Assembly (NCBI GenBank): GCA_005222975.1
Contig: NJBI01000070.1
Span: 1 to 14,588, forward strand
Reading direction: 5' to 3'
Origin: Promethearchaeota archaeon Loki_b31
GTDB taxonomy: Archaea > Asgardarchaeota > Lokiarchaeia > Sigyniarchaeales > SOKP01
DNA length: 14,588 nucleotides
The translations under genes and the position numbers were made by a program. This document shows positions 2,689 to 14,588 of the stretch, in pieces (the first letter of the stretch is position 1; each line of letters opens with the position of its first letter). A model generated the notes under the pieces. The model did no database searches and was not told the origin of the DNA. It was given only the letters and a program-made list of their open reading frames with translations.

Positions 2689-4059
2689 TTGAATGAAAAA
2701 AACGTTTTAAAAGAATTGGAAGATATTGTTGGGAAAGATTTTGCTTCGAATCGTTCGGAAGATTTATATATTTACTCCCAAGATCCGGGAGCATCAGTTC
2801 CCCGCCCTGCAGACTTTGTAGTAATGCCAAATACACCTAAGGAAGTCCAAGAAATAATAAAACTAGCAAATCGAGAAAAGGTTCCAATAGTTCCGATGGG
2901 TGGTGGTTTAACGTTAAGTGGGCTTGTAATTCCCGTAAAAGGAGGCATAGTTATGGATATGAAACGCATGAATAAAATATTAGAAGTTAACGAATTAAGT
3001 CGGTTTGCCCTTGTAGAAGCAGGAGTAACTTCAGGACAACTTTTAGCGTACTTAAATGAAAATCATCCAAGGCTACAACCACCAATTCCAGATGCACCTC
3101 CTTCAGTTACAATTGCCGGGAACGCGTTAATTCATGGATCTGGTTATTTGTCCCAAAAATTCGGAGATCACGGTGCTATGATTAATGGATTAGAAGTTGT
3201 ACTCCCTGATGGAGAATTATATAAATTAGGCTCTTGTGCGGTTTCAGATTATTGGTTTACGAGAGGTCCCATTCCAGATTTTATTGGTTTGTTTATTAGC
3301 TCATTTGGTACTATAGGTATTATTACAAAACTCTCTATTAAACTATTTCCCAAACCTAAGATGAGAGATATAGTATTTGGCTTATGTAAAGAACCGAATG
3401 TACTCCCAGAATTAATTTCAAACATAACATTTACGGATGTAGCCGAAGATATTTTACTAGGGATTCAAGATAAACCCGATTGGATGAAAGGCTACACATT
3501 TATTATCGTTTATATCACTGGTGAAACAGAAGAAGAATTAAATAATAAAAGAAAAATTCTTAAGAAAATGTATCGCAAAGGAAAATCTAGGTACATGAAA
3601 GTTCCAAAAAGAATTGAAGATATATTTCTCGAAAAACCACAATTTGCTGCGAAAGCGGCAGACTTTAGGAAGGGAGGTGGCTTTGAATATGTTGGGGCCT
3701 TCATACCGCTTCAATTAATCCCTGAAATAATTCAAATTGGTACAGATATTTCTTTAAAACACGGAATCGTTCCCACTTTGGGCGCTAGACTTATAGGACA
3801 AGGTCACGCTGCGATGTTTTTTATTTCGTATTCTTTTAACCGCGCAGATCCGAAAGATATGAAAAACGCGCGAGAGGCATTACACGAAACAAATAAAGCT
3901 GTGCTTGAAATTGGAGGAATTCCGTGGAAAGCAGAAGTAGCAGGACAACAACTAATACTAGAAAAGATGGATCCTAATTATAAGAAACTGCTAAAAAGCA
4001 TTAAAAATCTATTAGACCCAAATGGGATTATGAATCCAGGAAATTGGGATGTTAAATAA
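2689..4059 (+). CDS. FAD-binding oxidoreductase, VAO/PCMH (GlcD-like) superfamily
   Basis: TTG start. Motifs PADFVVMP, IVPMGGGLTLSG, GGIVMDMKRMNKILEV, VEAGV, TIAGN, GLEVVLPDG, GTIGIITKL and C-terminal LDPNGIMNPG. Confidence 0.92.
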   Translation: MNEKNVLKELEDIVGKDFASNRSEDLYIYSQDPGASVPRPADFVVMPNTPKEVQEIIKLANREKVPIVPMGGGLTLSGLVIPVKGGIVMDMKRMNKILEVNELSRFALVEAGVTSGQLLAYLNENHPRLQPPIPDAPPSVTIAGNALIHGSGYLSQKFGDHGAMINGLEVVLPDGELYKLGSCAVSDYWFTRGPIPDFIGLFISSFGTIGIITKLSIKLFPKPKMRDIVFGLCKEPNVLPELISNITFTDVAEDILLGIQDKPDWMKGYTFIIVYITGETEEELNNKRKILKKMYRKGKSRYMKVPKRIEDIFLEKPQFAAKAADFRKGGGFEYVGAFIPLQLIPEIIQIGTDISLKHGIVPTLGARLIGQGHAAMFFISYSFNRADPKDMKNAREALHETNKAVLEIGGIPWKAEVAGQQLILEKMDPNYKKLLKSIKNLLDPNGIMNPGNWDVK

Positions 4060-5241
4060 ATGACTTTAAAAATTGAACAAGATTGGAAAGATATAGTTCA
4101 TAGGTGTTTCAGATGTGGTTATTGTAAATTTACCTACGATTATTCTGATTTTAATTGTCCTAGCTATAAAAAGTTCCGATTTGAGACTTATTCCACAGGT
4201 GGAAGGTTGTGGCTAATTTACGGTTTGATTAGTGGTGAAATCTCGTGGAGTCAAGGTGTAGCCAATGTACTTTACGCGTGTTCTACTTGCGGAAATTGTT
4301 CTGAAAATTGTAGGTTTGATAAATTTAACGATCTTCTGGTAGACATTATAGAAGCTGCTCGGGCAGTAGCAGTAGAAAAAGGATTTTGTCCAGAGAACCA
4401 AAAGGCTTTAATTGAACGCATAGAGAACCCTGAGATGTACAATCCATATGGCGAACAAAATTCTAATAACGAAGATTTAAAGAAAGAATACGATTTACCA
4501 GATAAAGCAGAATGGGTTTATTTTATCGGATGTACATCTAATTATCGTCAAAAAAATTTAAGAGACGCTACTTTGAGATTCTTGAAGAAAGCTAATATCG
4601 ATTTTACTTTGGTGGATGAACATTGTTGCTGTAGCCCGGTAATGCGAACTGGTCAAATTAATTCTGTTAAAGACTTTATTAATTATAATATTGCTCAAAT
4701 AAACAATGCGGGCGCCTCAAAAGTCATCACATCATGTGCGGGTTGTTACCGTACACTAAAAAAGGATTGGTTAAAATACGGTGCTGATTACGATTTTCAG
4801 ATATATCACACAGTAGAATTAGTTAAAGAGCTATTAGACGAAGGAAAATTAAAGTTTAAATCAGAATATAACAAAACAGTAACTTATCACGACCCCTGCC
4901 ACCTTGGAAGACATATGGATATCTACGAAGTTCCAAGAGATGTGTACAAACAAATTCCAGGAATTAAACTTGTAGAAATGAAAAGAAATCGAGAAAACGC
5001 TTGGTGTTGCGGCGCTGGAGGTGGCGTAAAAATAGGTTATCCCGAGTGGTCAGTTGAGATTTCAAAGGAAAGGCTTAAGGAGGCAAAAACGACGGGAGCA
5101 TCCGTTATATCGTCAGTATGTCCCTTTTGTAGGACGAATTTGAGCGATGCAAACGATAAATTTGATATGAATTTTGAAGTTATCGATTTGATTGAGATAA
5201 TAGATAAATTAGACTTCGAAATTACTGATACCAAACATTAA
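4060..5241 (+). CDS. Fe-S oxidoreductase with two 4Fe-4S motifs and two CCG domains (GlcF/HdrD-like)
   Basis: CFRCGYC...CP and CSTCGNCSENC; CCG domain 1 GC..HCCCSP..SCAGC; CCG domain 2 YHDPCHLGR..CCGAGGG..VCPFC. The ATG directly follows the upstream TAA. Confidence 0.93.
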   Translation: MTLKIEQDWKDIVHRCFRCGYCKFTYDYSDFNCPSYKKFRFETYSTGGRLWLIYGLISGEISWSQGVANVLYACSTCGNCSENCRFDKFNDLLVDIIEAARAVAVEKGFCPENQKALIERIENPEMYNPYGEQNSNNEDLKKEYDLPDKAEWVYFIGCTSNYRQKNLRDATLRFLKKANIDFTLVDEHCCCSPVMRTGQINSVKDFINYNIAQINNAGASKVITSCAGCYRTLKKDWLKYGADYDFQIYHTVELVKELLDEGKLKFKSEYNKTVTYHDPCHLGRHMDIYEVPRDVYKQIPGIKLVEMKRNRENAWCCGAGGGVKIGYPEWSVEISKERLKEAKTTGASVISSVCPFCRTNLSDANDKFDMNFEVIDLIEIIDKLDFEITDTKH

Positions 5242-5323
5242 TTAAAAGAATTTATTACCTCTTTTTGTTTTAAAATTATTATTAGTTTTAAAAGTAAATA
5301 ATTAATTTGTAGATGTGATTGAA

Positions 5324-6190
5324 ATGAGGTTAGGTGCGCACATGAGCGTTACAGGAGGTAAGTATATGGCTCTTGAAAGGGGAAAAGAGCTTGGGTGCCA
5401 ATCAATTCAAGTATTTATAAGAAGTGTGCGCTCTTGGTCGGCAAAACCTTTAGATAAAAAAGATATTGAAGATTTTCTTAAGACAAAGGAAGAATTAAAA
5501 GAAGAAATTTGGCCTATAATTAGTCACAATAGTTATCTAATAAATTTAGCAAGTATCGATAAAGAAAAATTGGAAAAATCTTATAATGCTATGCTAGATG
5601 AGCTTATTAAAGCTGATCAACTCGATATCGAATACGAAAACATGCATCCTGGAGTCATTCCTATAAGCGATAATAATGAAATTTCCAAAAAAGAAGCGCT
5701 AATTCAGATGGCTAATCAATTAAACAAATTAATAGATGAAACTAAGGGCTCTAAGGTTCAAATTCTGTTAGAAACTACCGCTGGGCAAGGTAAGGGTTTA
5801 GGCAATAAATTTCATCACTTAGCTACGATTATTGATAAAATTAAAGATAAAAATAGAATTGGAGTTTGTTTTGATACGGCCCATTCATTTGCAGCAGGCT
5901 ACGACTTTACTACTAAGAAAAAATATGACGAAATGTGGACTGAGTTTGACGATATTATTGGATTGAAGTATTTATTTGCTTTTCATTTGAACGACACTGA
6001 AAAAGATTTAGGTTCTAGGGTTGATCGTCATACTCACATAGGACAAGGAAAAATCGGCAAGGAACCCTTTGGATTCTTGTTAAATGATGATAGATTTAGA
6101 GATCATCCGGGAATTATAGAGACTCCAAAAGGTAAAGATATGAAAGAAGATATAATGAATTTAAAAATTCTTAGATCTTTAATAAAGTAA
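5324..6190 (+). CDS. nfo: Endonuclease IV (AP endonuclease family 2)
   Basis: LGAHMS, HNSYLINLAS, HPG, LLETTAGQG, GVCFDTAHSFAAGY, HLND, DRHTHIGQG, IETP, i.e. the Zn-ligand motifs. ATG at 5324 (MRLGAH) preferred over the GTG at 5315. Confidence 0.96.
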   Translation: MRLGAHMSVTGGKYMALERGKELGCQSIQVFIRSVRSWSAKPLDKKDIEDFLKTKEELKEEIWPIISHNSYLINLASIDKEKLEKSYNAMLDELIKADQLDIEYENMHPGVIPISDNNEISKKEALIQMANQLNKLIDETKGSKVQILLETTAGQGKGLGNKFHHLATIIDKIKDKNRIGVCFDTAHSFAAGYDFTTKKKYDEMWTEFDDIIGLKYLFAFHLNDTEKDLGSRVDRHTHIGQGKIGKEPFGFLLNDDRFRDHPGIIETPKGKDMKEDIMNLKILRSLIK

Positions 6191-6221
6191 AATATTATAT
6201 CTTTCATTTTATTTTTGTATA

Positions 6222-6710
6222 TTATAATCCTATCCAATTGTTTAATGGATTATTTATAATAGGGCCTAAAGATTGAAAAGAAGCATGTTTAAAGTGTGCA
6301 TCACAAGTATATAAAATATCAACTTCTTTATAAAGTGGTAAAACACAAAGATAATCCCAAATATGTATTCCACTTTGTTTACTAAGATTTATTGCTTGTT
6401 CTATATCTTTAAAAGTAATATGATACCAATCCATAAATTTTCCTTGTAATAATTGAAAACAATATGTTTGTACAAATTCATGCGGCAATCTCATCCCTCG
6501 AAATCCTAAAACATGGTATATTTCACACAATTGGTGGTATGTCATTGAGATTCTATCTTCGTTAATTTTTTGCTTTATAAATTCGCTAGATTGTTTATGA
6601 AGTTCAAATGCTTTTTCAAAATCTGAGTTATTAACGAATTTAGAATTATCTGGAACCTTTTGGGCAAAAATCCATAGTTCTGTATCAATGAAAATTTTGA
6701 TATTAACCAC
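6222..6710 (-). CDS. vapC: PIN-domain ribonuclease toxin (VapC-like)
   Basis: Acidic PIN tetrad pattern IFIDT...LCEIY...IWDY...YTCDAHF. It overlaps the end of the upstream small gene. Start uncertain (GTG 6710, or ATG 6728 as in the ORF track). Confidence 0.85.
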   Translation of the reverse strand: MVNIKIFIDTELWIFAQKVPDNSKFVNNSDFEKAFELHKQSSEFIKQKINEDRISMTYHQLCEIYHVLGFRGMRLPHEFVQTYCFQLLQGKFMDWYHITFKDIEQAINLSKQSGIHIWDYLCVLPLYKEVDILYTCDAHFKHASFQSLGPIINNPLNNWIGL

Positions 6711-6981
6711 CAATATCATTATATTCATATTCCTTGAAATCCTCAGGTTGCGCTCCAGAAAATTTTCGTTCCAATATCATAAGAAAATTTTTCCTATCTT
6801 TTTCAACTTCTGATAAAAAAGGCGAGGATTTTACTTCAATTGATTCATTTTTCTTTAAAAGATGTACAATCGCATCTTCTAAGGTAACTCTCTTACCTAA
6901 TCTTTTAGCTAGTTCACCTACTACACGATGTAAACTTTCTAAAGTCTTTCTCGTAACTTTAATTGTTGTATTTTTACTCAT
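6703..6981 (-). CDS. Putative antitoxin (VapB-like, RHH-type N-terminus)
   Basis: 92 aa. N-terminal TTIKV strand followed by two helices (..TLEDAIVHLL) and an acidic tail. Lies directly upstream of and overlapping the PIN gene. Confidence 0.75.
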   Translation of the reverse strand: MSKNTTIKVTRKTLESLHRVVGELAKRLGKRVTLEDAIVHLLKKNESIEVKSSPFLSEVEKDRKNFLMILERKFSGAQPEDFKEYEYNDIGG

Positions 6982-7356
6982 ATAATATTAGAAGTATACA
7001 AAGTATAAAAAATATACCATTAAAATTCTATAATTATAGGTAAAATACTTTTAAAGAATCTTGCAACTCTTAGATCATTGATAAAATAATTCATTAAATA
7101 AAATTAATTCTGTAATATATTTCGAAGGTATTGGAGTTGTTCTCTTTATAATAGGATTGGTACTTCTAAAACTCTCGCGAAAATAGAAATTACATAAAGA
7201 ATTTTCAGTGGATCTTTTAAATTTTTTACCTTTTCATATTCATCATGAAATTCGACAGGAAAGGGGGATCTACTAGTTACTAAATATTTGCATTAGATGA
7301 AATTGGTCCCTACTGTTTCTTTCACGAGTAGAAGACAAGGGTATCTTTTTTTAGAA

Positions 7357-7703
7357 TTATTTCCAACTCTTCGCGAGTCCTAAATATAGCAAAAATATTC
7401 CTGATATTAATAACAACAAAATCGCCCACCAAAATATATACCACCACAGATACATATATAGGAATCCCACAATTAAGGAAAGAATTCCAAAAATTTTTGA
7501 TAGACGTTCATACGCTTTTTGCTTAATAAGATTAAGCAATCCACAAATAATATCTAACACACCTAACAAGAAAAATAAGAAGAAAAAAGGAAATATTACA
7601 AACATCCAAGCCCTGATATCATAGGGACTAATACGAGAAAAAAAATTAATAGTAAAATCAGACCACTACCAATAAAAGTTGTACCTATTATATGATATTT
7701 CAT
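7357..7703 (-). pseudogene. Small membrane protein, frameshifted at a T8 tract (about 115 aa, about 4 TM if repaired)
   Basis: ATG at 7703 gives MKYHIIGTTFIGSGLILLLIFF. Adding one T in the homopolymer at 7638-7645 joins it in frame to the 82-aa ORF at 7357-7605. Confidence 0.6.
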
Positions 7704-7923
7704 AAATAATAAGTCTTCAGATTGAGAATTTAAACTTTTTTGTCAAAAAAGTAGCGTTTATTTTAAATTTGATTTTACTGTATTTTTGTTACGCTCTTTT
7801 ACAAAAAATTATGATTAAAAAAAGAGGATTTTTGGGCTCTATGAAAATGATGGGTAAAATGCTTTTAAAGAAGCAAATTTAAAGCTACATGCTTAAATTA
7901 AACTTTTTTTTTTACTTTTTAAA

Positions 7924-8322
7924 TTAATCAAGAACGTTAAACCATACAGGACTTTTATCACTAACCAGACCATTATAATTAACTGTGAGTTCCTCTCCTT
8001 CTTTAATCTCTTTAATAGCAGAGAACTCTATTGCTTTTTCTTTGTAATCATATAAATATTTTATGTTAGGTTCATAAGAGTGATTAATGAATTGAGATAT
8101 ACTGAGCGTTATAGCATTTTCAAATCCTGGTTTGTGCTTGGGATCTTTCCAAATATAGCAATAATCATAAAGGACAGTTTTTTTAATTTTCTTATAATCC
8201 TTGTTGGGAATTAAAATTACATTTGCTACATCAATTATAGTATTCTTTTTAATATCTTTCTTAGCAAACGCGCCCTTTCCTTTCCCTTTTGAGATATATC
8301 TTATCTTAATATATTCATTCAT
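7924..8322 (-). CDS. Stand-alone SET-domain protein-lysine methyltransferase
   Basis: SET motifs GKGKGAFAKKDI, FINHSYEPN and AIKEIKEGEELTVNY. No post-SET Cys. ATG at 8322, alternative GTG at 8331. Confidence 0.92.
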   Translation of the reverse strand: MNEYIKIRYISKGKGKGAFAKKDIKKNTIIDVANVILIPNKDYKKIKKTVLYDYCYIWKDPKHKPGFENAITLSISQFINHSYEPNIKYLYDYKEKAIEFSAIKEIKEGEELTVNYNGLVSDKSPVWFNVLD

Positions 8323-8340
8323 AAAATACACTAATAAAAT

Positions 8341-8928
8341 TTATTCAATCGAAGCATGACGTTTATCGATATCTTTTTCTGTGACTCCCAATAATTCCAT
8401 TAATGTGGCTCCAATTGAATCTAATACGGTTAGCGTTGAGATGTCGAATAGAGTTGTGTAAGGTGCTAAAGTTTTTTGTGAAACAGCCATATCTTTACTT
8501 TTCCCATCAACTTTAATTATTAAATCCGATAATTTTCCTATAGTACTCTCTGGATTATTTGTTAGTAAAGCAATTTTCCCTCCTATGTCCTTTGCTTTTC
8601 GCGCTATAGCGACGGGAGAGGTGGTTTCACCGCTTCCACTTATTAAAATAAGTAAGTCTTCTTTACTATAACGATGAGTAATCGCATCTGAGACAAAACA
8701 GGAATTAACCCCTAAATGCATTAATCTTTGAGCAAAACAACGCCCTATAAAGCCAGACCGCCCGGCCCCATAAACAAAAATCGTTCCATCGTTAGAATTA
8801 ACTTGAGTAATCAAATCAATTAATTTTAAAACATGTGTAGTGTTAATTGTTTTAGAATTTTTTATAATCTGATTTGCTATTTCAAGAATTGTATTTAAAA
8901 ACCTTTCGTGACTTTTCTCGTAATTCAT
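8341..8928 (-). CDS. hxlB: 6-phospho-3-hexuloisomerase (SIS domain, PHI)
   Basis: IFVYGAGRSG, FAQRLMHLG, ISGSGET, LAPYTTLFD and C-terminal RHASIE. Start moved to ATG 8928, which has an RBS and removes the overlap with the upstream gene. Confidence 0.9.
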   Translation of the reverse strand: MNYEKSHERFLNTILEIANQIIKNSKTINTTHVLKLIDLITQVNSNDGTIFVYGAGRSGFIGRCFAQRLMHLGVNSCFVSDAITHRYSKEDLLILISGSGETTSPVAIARKAKDIGGKIALLTNNPESTIGKLSDLIIKVDGKSKDMAVSQKTLAPYTTLFDISTLTVLDSIGATLMELLGVTEKDIDKRHASIE

Positions 8929-8932
8929 ATTT

Positions 8933-8939
8933 TCACCCC
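8933..8939 (-). promoter_or_regulatory. Shine-Dalgarno-like site GGGGTGA for hxlB
   Basis: GGGGTGA lies 4 nt upstream of ATG 8928 on the minus strand. Confidence 0.7.
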
Positions 8940-8948
8940 ACTTTATTC

Positions 8949-10211
8949 TCATTTCGTAGATTCTGGACGTACACATCTTCTCCATTGATCTACGCTCTCT
9001 TTAGGTCCCAAACCTATTAGTAAATCACCTTCTTCAAATATTAAATCTGATTTGAAGCTATATATCCATTTGTCTTTTCTTTTTAGAGCAATTATATGGA
9101 ACCCTCGTTTATATCGTTGATCTTGTAATTCGTCGTAGGTTTTGTTTTTAAAGTAAGAATCTGCTGATAATGTTTCTCGAACTACTATCTCAGATGTTTC
9201 TTCAATTGCTTTCTGAATAATTACATGTGGTTCAAACCCTTTTAAGATGTTTTCAGCTAAATGAGCCGCAGCATCAGCTATTAATTCGCATGAAAAAACT
9301 ATACGCATAATTCCCGTCAGATCTCTTGGACTATCAACTAAATGCGCAAAATCTAGAAGATTCTTCTCGAAATTTATATTAAGTCCGTCCATTAAGGCTT
9401 CCATTTCGATTACATCTTCTGCTAATTCATAGCTATTAAAGAACAATGATGCGAGTGCCAATTCTATCATTGTTTCAGAGATGTCTGTTATTAATACATA
9501 ATCTCTTTTAAGTTCTTGAATTTCCTCAAATATTTCAGGGTTTTTGAGATCGAATTCAGGTTCCTTTCCTTCCTCATCAATTTGAAAAGAGATTTCTTCC
9601 TCATCAAGAGTTATTTTCTTCAACTCTTTAATCGGTTCAAGCTCGCCTTTAATAATTAAGATATCTCCTTTCTCAATTATGTTATTCTTATCAAACAACC
9701 AATCATCGCTTCTTTTTATTGCAATTAAGTCGACTCCATACTGAGATCTAAAATGCACATCTTGACGGTTCATTCCTATGAGTTTGCAATCCTCTTTGAC
9801 ACATATTTTTACTATTGGTTCAGGAACTTCGTCCCAAAAGAGTTGCGTGAAGTCAGATATATCGCTATTTATATAAACAACGCGAGCTATATCCGCAAGA
9901 GCGTCCGAAACTTTGTCAATTGAATAACCCATTACAACAATTGGCTCTAATCTCTTGGCTTCTTTAAACCCCCCAGTTTGTGTTTGAGTAATTTGTAAAT
10001 TCAACAGAAAAGTTAACTCGTGTATTCGCTTTTCAATTTTAGTAGTTTCGTCTGCTATCTCTTTACTACCAAATTTAATCGCACTATAGGCGAGGTCAAA
10101 CATTAGATCAATTTTTTGTTTCATCTCTCTCAATATATCTTTTAGAGATATAGGTTGGTATTGAAATACCTTCTTCTTTCTTTTTTCATGCGGTTTAATT
10201 GAATTTCTCAC
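8949..10211 (-). CDS. PhoU + TrkA_C (RCK_C) protein, internally duplicated
   Basis: GTG start. Two repeats: MFDLAYSA..IAIKRSDDWLF..IIEKGDILIIKG and MIELALAS..IALKRKDKWIY..FEEGDLLIGLG. Confidence 0.85.
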   Translation of the reverse strand: MRNSIKPHEKRKKKVFQYQPISLKDILREMKQKIDLMFDLAYSAIKFGSKEIADETTKIEKRIHELTFLLNLQITQTQTGGFKEAKRLEPIVVMGYSIDKVSDALADIARVVYINSDISDFTQLFWDEVPEPIVKICVKEDCKLIGMNRQDVHFRSQYGVDLIAIKRSDDWLFDKNNIIEKGDILIIKGELEPIKELKKITLDEEEISFQIDEEGKEPEFDLKNPEIFEEIQELKRDYVLITDISETMIELALASLFFNSYELAEDVIEMEALMDGLNINFEKNLLDFAHLVDSPRDLTGIMRIVFSCELIADAAAHLAENILKGFEPHVIIQKAIEETSEIVVRETLSADSYFKNKTYDELQDQRYKRGFHIIALKRKDKWIYSFKSDLIFEEGDLLIGLGPKESVDQWRRCVRPESTK

Positions 10212-10227
10212 TCTCGTTTTTAGGTAT

Positions 10228-10779
10228 TTAAATAAATATATGTATAAAAATTATAATAAACATAGGCGTTAGAAAATCTGCTAAAGATGTAACCATGGGA
10301 ATTAAAAAATTATTGGGATCTTTACCCTTCTTAAATATGAATATAGAACTAATAAATAATAACACAAACATCAAGCCAAAAAGAATCAAAATAGTAATAA
10401 TTATAATAGATATTATCAACAACGGATTAACGATTTCTATTCCAGTTGCACTTCCAAATAAGTATCCTAAGCTTATTAATGCAACTAGGCTTAATAAAAT
10501 TGTTATAAGTAACCCATAAAAATCTTGCTTTAATCTATCAGAAACTTGTATTTTTGGAGATATGGTACCTAAATATAGGTGTGAAGTAAGACGCGAAATT
10601 AAAACCGTCGAAATATCACCAATTAAAGAATTTAAAGAAGGTAAAACTAACAAAATGATTGGAAAAGTATACAAAATCTCTTTATTATTGGATAAAAGCG
10701 TGCCTGAAAAGAGCCCCATTATAGAACTAATAATTACGATTATTATAGATTCTTTAAAGATCTTTTTAAAGTAATCCAA
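10228..10779 (-). CDS. MgtE/SLC41-type divalent cation transporter membrane domain (half 2)
   Basis: TTG start, 5 TM segments, motifs PSLNSLIGD and DPNNFLIPMVTSLAD. Confidence 0.88.
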   Translation of the reverse strand: MDYFKKIFKESIIIVIISSIMGLFSGTLLSNNKEILYTFPIILLVLPSLNSLIGDISTVLISRLTSHLYLGTISPKIQVSDRLKQDFYGLLITILLSLVALISLGYLFGSATGIEIVNPLLIISIIIITILILFGLMFVLLFISSIFIFKKGKDPNNFLIPMVTSLADFLTPMFIIIFIHIFI

Positions 10780-10781
10780 AA

Positions 10782-11336
10782 TTACGGCACCCCCAGCAAA
10801 ATAATTGCTAAATAGAAGCTTATAACCGTAAGAAAATCATCAATGGCTGTCATTATAGGATTAACAATGTTATTTGGGTCTAAACCGCGTTTAAACGCGA
10901 AGAGATTTAAGGCAGTAGAACAAGGAATTGAAACTGTTAATGTCAATAGAATAGAAATTATTGGTATAACAATTAACAAACCAATATGAAAAATAAAGAG
11001 TTTAATTAATAAGAGATTTAAAAAAATACTTAGAATTCCAATTGCGATAGCAGTTATTAAGGCTAGCGTATAGGTTGCTAGTACATTTTCAAACCATGAT
11101 TTTAAGTTAAACTCTCCAATAATTAAATCTCTCGATGTCCTTGCTATAAAAGGTCCGCTTAAATTTCCCCTTAGCGAAAGCAAAGCAGGTATAATTAGAA
11201 TAAGTATTAGAAAGCTCTCAAAAGAGACTATTAAAATAGAAAGAACGATTCCCGCGAAAATATCTCCCACAATCGAAACCATCTCAGATGGAAAAGTCTC
11301 TTTAACGATTTTACCTTTTGTATCTCGAGCTTCCAT
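10782..11336 (-). CDS. MgtE/SLC41-type divalent cation transporter membrane domain (half 1)
   Basis: 5 TM segments, motifs PALLSLRGN (PX6GN) and GLDPNNIVNPIMTAIDD. The true start may be 11383 (see findings). Confidence 0.88.
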   Translation of the reverse strand: MEARDTKGKIVKETFPSEMVSIVGDIFAGIVLSILIVSFESFLILILIIPALLSLRGNLSGPFIARTSRDLIIGEFNLKSWFENVLATYTLALITAIAIGILSIFLNLLLIKLFIFHIGLLIVIPIISILLTLTVSIPCSTALNLFAFKRGLDPNNIVNPIMTAIDDFLTVISFYLAIILLGVP

Positions 11337-11622
11337 ATGTCATCATCGTCGTCAGATGAATTAAAGGATAAATTTTCGTTCATATTCTTAATAATTAATT
11401 AAGATTCGAAAACATTTAAAATTTTTAGAATGGAATATGAAAACATATTTTAACTTAAATTTACTCATATTTTTTTTACCATTTAATACAGCAAAGTTAC
11501 AATACTGGTGCGATTGTCTCACTATCGACGATCACATTTAAATGTTTTGTCATAAGAAAAAGTATTTACCATAATTATTAATAAAAAAATGTTAACTCAA
11601 TGTTTTGCTAAATTAATTCCAA

Positions 11623-13125
11623 CTAATTTGGGTCGATGGCATTAAGGGCATACTCAATTTCTTTCTTTACTTTCCAATCGTCGTCCCATAGTAATTTAGC
11701 TAACCATTTTAAAGCTTCTTTATCTCCTATTTGACCTAAAGTTTTTGCCGCAGCAATCCGCATCTTAGCGTCTTTGTCTTTTAATAGCGTTACAAAGGGA
11801 GTTATATCGCTAATATTTTCTAGTTTTCCTAACGACATAGCTACCCAACTTCGAATAAATATATCTTTATCTTCCATTAATCCAATTAAAGATTCGGTTG
11901 ACTTATCATCATTAATTTTAATTAAAAGTTTAACTGCTGCTCTTCTTGTCTTCCAATTTAAATCGTTAGTTAACTTTTTTGCGCCTTCAATTACCTTTTC
12001 GCTCCCAAACCTTGATAGCGCTTCAATTGCTGCGTCCCTTACCTTACTATCATCATCACTTAATAAATCAAAAAGTGCGTTGATTAAATTTTCATCACCA
12101 ATTTCTACGATAACTCTTGCGCTTAAACTCCTAATTTTCCATTCTTTCGCTTTCAAACCCTCGATAATTTGAGTTGGAATCGTATCTTTATAAATATTTA
12201 AAATTGCTTTATACGCTAACCTTCTCAATTTCGCATCTTTACTGTTGAAAACTCTCACGAGATAGTAAATAGAACTTTTGTCTTCCAATAAACTCAACAA
12301 TTTTATCGCTTCTCTTCTAGAAATAATATTTCGGCCGTTTAATAATTCGTAGATTTTATTGTATGGAGGAGGTTGATTTGAAAGAATTGAGAACAAAGTT
12401 CGAACAGATAACTTTCGAATTTCAGGATTTTTTTCTTTGAAAAATTTTACTAAATGAGGAATAGACTTTTTACTTTTTATAGTGCTTAAAGCTTTGATTG
12501 CTGATTTTTTTACGCGTAAATCTTCGTCGCTTAAAGCGTTCAGAATAAACTTTGCGTCTTTTAATTGAATTAATTTTTCTAATCCTTTGATTGAATTCTT
12601 ACGAATTAATGGGTCTTCGTGTGTTATTAATTCTTTTAATCTCTCAATGCACTCTCCACTGCCAATCTTTCCTAATATGTATGGGATTGATCTTTTAACA
12701 TGAATATTTCCTTTGTTTATATAATCGAATATTATATCTAAGGCCCCTTCTTTCCCAATCCTTATAATAGAAGCAAGAACGGCATCTTTAATCTCTAAAG
12801 AGGGATTTTGGAGCATATTTAACAAAGGAATTAAGGCTATGGACATTTTTGCTCTTCCTAAAGCTATCACAGATGCTTTTTTTGACTCAATATTATTGTC
12901 TGTAAGAGCTTTGATTAGTAATTGGATGGAAATGTCGTTTATGTTTTTCCCGGCAACATCGATTATTTTTTTTCTTACTTTTCCATCGCTTTCGCTTTTA
13001 TACTGAGATAATAGAAATTCTAGTCCTCCATTTTCAAAATGCAGAGCCACTGCTTCGATTAATTGTATTTTTTTTAGGGGAACTGTCTCTTTTAGGTATG
13101 AATTTTTAAGTTCTTGAAAACTCAT
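11623..13125 (-). CDS. HEAT/PBS-lyase-like repeat protein
   Basis: Many repeats of about 31 aa of the form L.D.D..VR..A..AL..I. ATG 13125 is supported by AGGAG at 13135-13139 and by the start of the paralogous mini-ORF at 14232. Confidence 0.92.
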   Translation of the reverse strand: MSFQELKNSYLKETVPLKKIQLIEAVALHFENGGLEFLLSQYKSESDGKVRKKIIDVAGKNINDISIQLLIKALTDNNIESKKASVIALGRAKMSIALIPLLNMLQNPSLEIKDAVLASIIRIGKEGALDIIFDYINKGNIHVKRSIPYILGKIGSGECIERLKELITHEDPLIRKNSIKGLEKLIQLKDAKFILNALSDEDLRVKKSAIKALSTIKSKKSIPHLVKFFKEKNPEIRKLSVRTLFSILSNQPPPYNKIYELLNGRNIISRREAIKLLSLLEDKSSIYYLVRVFNSKDAKLRRLAYKAILNIYKDTIPTQIIEGLKAKEWKIRSLSARVIVEIGDENLINALFDLLSDDDSKVRDAAIEALSRFGSEKVIEGAKKLTNDLNWKTRRAAVKLLIKINDDKSTESLIGLMEDKDIFIRSWVAMSLGKLENISDITPFVTLLKDKDAKMRIAAAKTLGQIGDKEALKWLAKLLWDDDWKVKKEIEYALNAIDPN

Positions 13126-13286
13126 AAATAGCAACTCCTAGTAAGTTTAACTAAAGTTTAACGATTTAGATAAAAATGTCTAAATGGATTATAGGTTATG
13201 GCTTTTTAATATTAATGAAATAGAAAAGTTTATTCAATCTTCAAGTATAATAAATAAATTCAAATTTTTCTTTATTATTATTATCT

Positions 13287-13997
13287 ATGAAATTCGTTCC
13301 GTATGAATCAAGAATCAAAGCTGGAGAAATATTAGCTGATTTTATTTTAGAGAACGATACAACACGATACAACCGCATAAACAAAAAGCCTGACAGTTTT
13401 ATATCGTTTGCTATACCAAACGGTGGCGTTCCTGTAGTTGAAGGATTTTGCCGTAAATTAAAAATAAATTACGATTTAATAATTGTTCGAAAAATTAAAA
13501 TTCCGTATAATACCGAAGCAGGATTTGGCTCAGTTACACCAGATGGAACCGTTTTAATAAATAATGATTTGTTGTATCAATTAAACCTTTCAGAGAAACA
13601 AGTTGAGAATGCAATCGAAATAACAAAAAAAGAAATCAAAGAACGCTTAGTGTTTTACAAGAAGAATTTCGACTTAGAAGAAACTTATCAGAATCTGATT
13701 AAAAATAAAATCGTATTTATGATTGACGATGGATTAGCCTCCGGTTTTACGATGCTAGCAGCTATTAAAATGGTAAAAAAATACGATCCTAAAGAGATCG
13801 TTATAAGCGTTCCTACGGCTCCGCTACACACGATTCAACGCATCCAAAATGCAGAAGTTAAAACTTTTTGTCCAAATATAAGAAACACGAGGTGGTTTGC
13901 AGTTGCTGACGCTTATAAACATTGGTATGACATACCCGAAATTGAAGTAATTAATTACTTAAATAAATCAAATTTTTACATCAACAACTTTGATTAG
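13287..13997 (+). CDS. Type I phosphoribosyltransferase (COG1926-like)
   Basis: YESRIKAG, AIPNGGVPV, VRKIKIPYNTEAGFGSV, PRPP-binding loop MIDDGLASGFTM, AVADAY. Confidence 0.93.
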   Translation: MKFVPYESRIKAGEILADFILENDTTRYNRINKKPDSFISFAIPNGGVPVVEGFCRKLKINYDLIIVRKIKIPYNTEAGFGSVTPDGTVLINNDLLYQLNLSEKQVENAIEITKKEIKERLVFYKKNFDLEETYQNLIKNKIVFMIDDGLASGFTMLAAIKMVKKYDPKEIVISVPTAPLHTIQRIQNAEVKTFCPNIRNTRWFAVADAYKHWYDIPEIEVINYLNKSNFYINNFD

Positions 13998-14103
13998 GGA
14001 ATTATACTAATTTCTTTAAGGATGAAAGTTATTAGATTTTTTTAAATTCATCAACTTAAGCACTATAAAAGAAAAGTAAAAAAAATAAAGATTTATGAGC
14101 TGA

Positions 14104-14232
14104 TCAATTGAAAAAGAATGTTTGCGTGTGGTATATAGAATTGGTCAAATTACTAATTGAATTAATCATATCCACTTTATTTTCTGGAACAGTTACTTTA
14201 AGATAAGAGTACTTAAATTCTTGAAATCCCAT
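14104..14232 (-). pseudogene. 42-aa truncated paralog of the HEAT protein N-terminus (remnant or microprotein)
   Basis: MGFQEFKYSYLKVTVPENKVDMINSI... versus MSFQELKNSYLKETVPLKKIQLIEAV; 12 of the first 16 residues are identical. ATG 14232, TGA 14104. Confidence 0.85.
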
Positions 14233-14376
14233 TTTTCTAATCTTTCATCTTTTCTTTTCAATAAAAAAAACCTTTAACTATAGAATCAAGTTTCTATTTT
14301 TATTTTTAAGTAAATGGAAAGATAGAAAATGTAAATATTAAAATTTAATTCTTTCAAATTATATTGACTTTAGAGC

Positions 14377-14508
14377 ATGAAATTTATTCCTTATGAGTCT
14401 AGATTCAAAGCAGGTGATTTTTTAGCTGAATTTGTTATAAAACATAATTCTGTTATAAAGAAAATTATAAACAATAAAATTGAAAAAGTCTTTTTAATAC
14501 TAATTTAA
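14377..14508 (+). pseudogene. 43-aa truncated paralog of the phosphoribosyltransferase N-terminus (remnant or microprotein)
   Basis: MKFIPYESRFKAGDFLAEFV... versus MKFVPYESRIKAGEILADFI; 14 of the first 20 residues are identical. ATG 14377, TAA 14508. Confidence 0.88.
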
Positions 14509-14588
14509 TAATTCTTTTTTACATTGAAAAATTAAAACGAATGTGAAAAGAATAAAAAATAAAAATATTATAATCCTTTTCTTATTTT

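Follow-up and report, generated by a model that had tools for sequence, protein, structure and literature searches.

Divergent HEAT and phosphoribosyltransferase mini-ORFs in a Promethearchaeota genome are probable stubs at the edge of a gene block from another lineage of the genus

Two short divergent ORFs lie near the end of a 14,588-bp stretch of DNA (the window), which is the entire contig C47 of a 3.5-Mb genome (92% complete, 6% contamination) belonging to lineage A, one of two lineages (A and B) of a Promethearchaeota genus. These mini-ORFs are very probably non-functional stubs at the edge of a lineage-B block that was recombined into the lineage-A chromosome beside the resident copies of the same genes. 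The block contains the start of a HEAT-repeat gene, a divergent promoter, the start of a phosphoribosyltransferase (PRTase) gene, an intact metallophosphoesterase gene and the 5' part of an ABC-type permease gene. Because the contig ends at 14588, 46 bases into the phosphoesterase gene, the right end of the block is not seen in this genome. The event is of a known kind, and this new example is unusually well resolved for an Asgard archaeon; its value lies in offering inter-species gene transfer among Asgard archaea with an empty site, a filled site, base-level junctions and decaying alleles in public data. No paper on this locus was found in the literature.

Table 1 Features of the window that bear on the origin of the mini-ORFs
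Feature	Position	Strand	Basis
Resident HEAT-repeat gene, lineage A, 500 aa	11623..13125	-	Pfam HEAT_2 E 4e-66; 92-95% nt to G017
Resident type I phosphoribosyltransferase gene, lineage A, 236 aa, intact	13287..13997	+	Pfam PF00156 E 7e-12
T8 tract, 8 bases past stop of 88-aa gene	14078..14085	-	Present in empty allele L067
Orphan 3' end of conserved 88-aa gene, 17 codons + stop, cut by insertion	14093..14146	-	C-terminus of 88-aa protein in 13 relatives
Mini-HEAT ORF	14104..14232	-	HEAT-B codons 1-29 (14146-14232) + 13 out-of-frame codons of 88-aa gene
Left junction, 2-nt microhomology	14145..14146	.	HEAT-B codon 29/30 joined to 88-aa gene codon 71/72
Lineage-B divergent spacer, 144 bp	14233..14376	.	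Alignable to B spacers
Mini-PRT ORF	14377..14508	+	PRTase-B codons 1-40 (14377-14496) + 3 codons + stop from phosphoesterase leader
Internal deletion junction, 7-nt microhomology	14490..14496	+	Common to G051 PRTase and Hel_238 upstream region
Metallophosphoesterase upstream region, T6 included	14497..14542	+	Aligns to same region in Hel_238, G023
Metallophosphoesterase, first 15 codons of ~461-464 aa	14543..14588	+	Full gene in L066, L072; PF00149 E 2e-14

A first-pass annotation had described the mini-ORFs as a miniature copy of the neighbouring divergent HEAT/PRTase pair, and its measurements were reproduced: both ORFs are in place, with 42 aa for mini-HEAT and 43 aa for mini-PRT (Table 1), the divergent spacers measure 144 bp in the mini pair and 161 bp in the resident pair, and the T tracts (T8 on the minus strand, and T6 at 14515-14520) are present. 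Codon comparison likewise returned 12 identical residues of 16 between mini-HEAT and the N-terminus of the window's own HEAT protein and 14 of 20 between mini-PRT and the own PRTase, six in each case through synonymous codons. In a genome-wide tblastn search the best other match of each mini-ORF was the neighbouring gene, the full PRTase matching 14377-14478 with an E value of 3e-5, and the similarity is above chance. Homology to lineage-B alleles, absent from that annotation, extends to HEAT codon 29 and PRTase codon 40. The same annotation regarded the tail of the contig as apparently non-coding, which proved incorrect, as it holds the 3' end of an 88-aa gene and the start of the phosphoesterase gene. 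Mini-PRT has been called as a gene on five contigs, which shows only its acceptance by gene callers, and mini-HEAT is on record nowhere as a called gene. An Rfam scan of 13000-14588 gave no score near the gathering threshold, and a promoter/terminator scan returned chance-level counts with a bacterial model that is uninformative for an archaeon.

The lineage of the host was assigned from rpoB, which is 98% identical to that of G017 and 95% to that of G005 (lineage A), compared with 82-85% to G043, G004 and G051 (lineage B). The segment from ~14145 to 14496, spacer included, is 84-87% identical at the nucleotide level to the region where the intact HEAT and PRTase genes start in G051, G056, G011 and G004, whereas its matches to the window's own pair cover only 63 and 57 bases. 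Over mini-HEAT codons 1-29, 25 of 29 residues are identical to the HEAT protein of G004 versus 14 of 29 to the own HEAT protein, and over mini-PRT codons 1-40, 31 of 40 residues are shared with the PRTase of G051 and equally with that of G004. The mini-pair spacer has the same length (144) as those of G051, G011 and G056, with 143 in G004, and is alignable to all four; no alignment with the lineage-A spacer was possible. In a tree built on eight rows and 207 columns, the stubs group with the B alleles, and a topology that unites stub and own A gene is rejected (p-AU 3.8e-5). By these alignments and the tree test the stubs are shown to be foreign (xenologous) DNA from another lineage of the genus, with 87% as the closest B match and the exact donor not found among the loci compared. 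An ancient tandem duplication of the window's own pair, trimmed later, would place the same layout beside the resident genes, but it is refuted, at an extremely low remaining probability, since the copy is not sister to the resident gene in the tree test, both stubs and spacer are of B type, and the 99.9% identity of the empty site described below marks the gain as recent. One of two readings proposed earlier, the relic of a long-diverged second copy of the locus trimmed from both ends, is thus right about a relic trimmed at both ends and wrong about a second copy arisen in this genome, since the stubs are B-type.

The site without the insertion was found in a same-species assembly, GCA_030602275.1 (contig L067), which is 99.9% identical to window positions 3287-14146 and encodes a PRTase protein identical to the resident one. 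It departs from the window exactly at 14146 into an intact 88-aa gene, followed by genes for a proline-rich protein, a deacetylase and actin. Empty and filled alleles are shown to coexist in one species, and the near-identity of the empty site indicates that the stubs were gained recently. The 88-aa gene is convergent with the PRTase gene and conserved across the genus; its orphan end in the window matches residues 72-88 of the protein at 100% in tblastn. Mini-HEAT is thus a chimera of 29 HEAT codons and 13 wrong-frame codons of the 88-aa gene. Both its stop and the T8 tract already exist in the empty allele, and T8 likely serves the 88-aa gene as terminator and does not belong to mini-HEAT. 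Near-equal lengths, stops and T8, previously counted as features of the mini-ORFs, are hence derived from flanking DNA. Since read-through by chance runs for a median of 10 codons in this genome, the tails of 13 and 3 codons, like the totals of 42 and 43, call for no explanation.

On the right side, an internal deletion has taken PRTase-B from codon 41 up to the phosphoesterase leader, and the last three codons of mini-PRT, its stop and the T6 tract derive from the phosphoesterase upstream region. The contig end had also been considered as the end of a minus-strand gene, a candidate that was rejected in favour of the start of the plus-strand phosphoesterase gene; its start codon at 14543 is GTG in this assembly and ATG in all other carriers read. 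Past the window, contigs L072 and L066 continue through the phosphoesterase gene, 86-92% identical at the nucleotide level to the B genomes Hel_238 and G043, into the 5' part of a B-type permease gene (ABC-type); there, a 4-nt microhomology marks the switch to an A-type PRTase gene, of which the 3' half follows. The B block measures ~2.8 kb in L072; L066 is without a further 900 bp of the permease and then carries ABC genes of the A type, together with the 88-aa gene in intact form and the proline-rich gene. The left flank of L066 is mostly 90-95% identical to the window (86-98% per bin), with 99-100% from ~13250 to ~14250. In L066, the 3' fragment of a PRTase gene that follows the phosphoesterase was examined as the possible rest of PRTase-B and rejected, being 88-95% identical to A and 72-74% to B. 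At the right junction of L072 (2034-3230), the reading frame passes from ~320 B-permease codons into the C-terminal half of the PRTase, PRPP motif included, to give a permease-PRTase chimera open over 399+ aa; L066 has lost the permease part. Searches of this genome's assembly recovered neither the remainder of the block nor the genes downstream of it, those for the proline-rich protein, deacetylase, actin orthologue and topoisomerase.

Part of the stretch is present in twenty public runs from seven studies. A contig from run X5 crosses the left junction over 14084-14241 with zero differences, another from run X2 does so over 14117-14407 at a depth of 358 with 30 letters on the short side, and a contig from run X1 crosses the right junction from 14378 to past the contig end. 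The identical joined form was read in independent JGI, ENA and Logan contigs (L045, L046, L066, L068, L069, L072 and L073); a search of the GTDB genome contigs with the junction patterns gave no Asgard match. An assembly chimera of co-occurring A and B organisms, a concern raised with the first description of the mini-ORFs, could draw on the nearby contig end, the genome contamination of 6% and the presence of both lineages in the same samples. It is nevertheless refuted, with practically negligible probability left to it, as both junctions are internal to contigs of several studies and assemblers, and an assembly graph cannot be joined through microhomologies as short as 2 and 7 nt.

All three junctions are microhomology-only joins (2, 7 and 4 nt). 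The joins probably arose by homology-facilitated illegitimate recombination (HFIR) in at least two rounds, with a homologous anchor in the syntenic flank and an illegitimate join at the other end. In L066 the left side would be a homologous crossover and the right side an illegitimate join, through which the 3' half of the resident PRTase gene may have been pushed downstream. We infer how the events followed one another and how the block ends on the right in this genome. HFIR has been described for Acinetobacter, Streptococcus and Pseudomonas and was proposed for the T6SS effector-immunity arrays of Vibrio cholerae (PMC5361080). In keeping with HFIR as defined there, one end here would lie in syntenic homologous DNA and the other is a non-homologous join, resident gene ends are displaced as orphans, and successive rounds would build a mosaic. 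The present case differs in that the host is an Asgard archaeon and that donor and recipient differ by 15-18% in rpoB, and the anchor is seen as the 99-100% tract in L066, a carrier, the right end of this genome being unassembled. No DprA or ComEC was found above cut-off in this 92%-complete genome. The case as a whole suggests that homology-anchored illegitimate recombination remodels the locus. A site-specific integrative element that entered the 3' end of the 88-aa gene and duplicated that end would explain why L066 has the last ~82 bp of the gene (95% identical) at both ends of a ~7.6-kb stretch. It is highly improbable, however, because no integrase or transposase is among the called genes of the block and no tRNA is present, the repeat in L066 is the only sign of att sites or a target duplication, and the contents are orthologues of local chromosomal genes, starting with a broken HEAT gene.

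Under the recombination reading, spread of the block may have been driven by the phosphoesterase gene or have hitch-hiked with it. This gene now appears directly behind the PRTase-B promoter as the only intact gene of the block, and is likely the selected cargo; any peptides made from the retained ATGs would be by-products. Truncated pseudogene fragments are known from variable loci of prokaryotic genomes, and the stubs resemble them in that 5' ends are kept, stops are met by chance, and strains differ by frameshifts and additional deletions. They differ in that two divergent 5' stubs lie together with the look of a miniature gene pair, both having survived because the piece is centred on the shared promoter region.

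The synonymous differences between the mini-ORFs and their neighbours had been taken as a mark of protein-level selection on the copy. The excess is real, and was acquired while the genes were full length, not by the mini-ORFs. Over the alignment windows used earlier, comparison with the own A genes gave the stubs a pN/pS of 0.19, and five intact B pairs came out at 0.19-0.29, so that the signal is silent on the short form, any intact B allele showing the same. As a caution of wider use, when synonymous changes predominate between a stub and the gene beside it, the excess may date from a time when both were full genes in different species. Values of stub versus B (0.39-0.61) overlap those of B versus B (0.33-0.49), a comparison that neither shows relaxation on the stub branch nor speaks against it. 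Among carriers, mini-PRT has four substitutions (I4N, H23F, E36K and L42Q) and one +G frameshift, which shortens it to 13 aa (L068 and run X7), versus one silent change; this points against purifying selection on the short ORF, with counts that are small and come in part from low-depth contigs. No variation was seen in mini-HEAT among the six other carriers read; as carriers are ~99% identical over the whole block, this sameness reflects recency.

The second reading proposed earlier was a functional cassette, in which microproteins or decoys made from a second bidirectional promoter regulate the full-length HEAT protein and PRTase. Both ATGs and the native B spacer are retained, mini-HEAT is identical among the carriers as noted, and the joined form is abundant in some sediments, as evidenced by the depth in X2. 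Relatives carry full-length genes (G051, G004, G011 and G056) or nothing at the site (L067), however, and stop positions are not conserved, truncation falling at codon 11 in G043, at codon 40 here and within the spacer in G002, G008 and G047. The mini-ORFs are moreover absent from the 99.9% identical assembly and were not found in the 41 other genomes of the genus searched, their tails are chance read-through, mini-PRT is frameshifted in two carriers, and the synonymous signal equals that of intact genes. This reading is accordingly very unlikely. As microproteins the stubs are of no importance; they are very probably commonplace remnants of gene transfer. Single-domain microproteins acting as dominant-negative decoys are known mainly from plants and animals. 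The stubs are like them in being short N-terminal copies with their own start codons, and differ in that they have no conservation across species, no sign of selection after truncation and no interaction domain identified, and null alleles exist.

A related alternative accepts the same origin, with mini-PRT kept in cis as a leader ORF that tunes phosphoesterase expression from the PRTase promoter. The mini-PRT stop lies 34 bases before the phosphoesterase start, and in G043 an independent event has placed PRTase codons 1-11 in frame with that gene. In Hel_238, by contrast, the phosphoesterase follows the same spacer with no PRTase stub, frameshifted carriers exist, and a contig of run X5 skips 14351-14508 (the letters between are not known), which leaves this alternative improbable. 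Putative recruitment in a broader sense, where stubs that began as debris would since have had the mini-PRT leader or one peptide co-opted to control the phosphoesterase or the resident PRTase, is hardly more probable. If true, an Asgard archaeon would here show the birth of a microprotein at an early stage, through truncation of a gene from another species.

The stubs of the transferred block are one more outcome of turnover at a hotspot, as the interval from HEAT to the 88-aa gene differs in almost every genome of the genus compared. The PRTase gene is intact in G017, G011, G051 and G056, is lost with a break within the spacer in G002, G008, G047 and G014, and is followed by ABC genes in G004. 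It is absent before the phosphoesterase gene in Hel_238. In G043 the PRTase gene is cut at codon 11 and continues in frame as the phosphoesterase (L061:10027-11442), an independent deletion that put the same phosphoesterase, found in three of the 41 other genomes of the genus, behind the same promoter, so that capture of the PRTase promoter happened twice.

Further irregularities were observed at this locus and elsewhere in the window. G007 has two PRTase copies 7.5 kb apart in the hotspot (C18 30385-31062 and 37870-38565; L042), one with two internal stops. G004 carries the HEAT-proximal part of the B spacer a second time, at 79%, in front of another gene (L036:13740-13841), possibly a repeat promoting deletions here. 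Window positions 6191-7107 hold a two-gene module (6222-6728 and 6703-6981) that is absent from G017 and has no Pfam match, and which we take to resemble a PIN toxin-antitoxin pair. Positions 7050-7107 align at 90-93% with the 3'-terminal part of the gene for endonuclease IV in G017 and G002; the alignment suggests that 6191-7107 is a second insertion with a displaced gene end.

The 88-aa protein has no match in Pfam, NCBIfam or PDB and no confident match in the Atlas. Its gene (L067:10807-11073, minus strand) has one fixed start codon, 7 bases after a conserved AGGTG, which is ATT in 10, TTG in three, ATG in three and ATC in one of 17 distinct upstream sequences; the conserved non-AUG start may mark an autoregulated gene. 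The proline-rich protein (233 aa; L067:11328-12029) has a conserved C-terminal helix, and its gene lies two genes upstream of actin (PF00022; L067:12921-14036) in all loci read. Its C-terminus has a possible resemblance to actin binders of the VASP/WH2 type.
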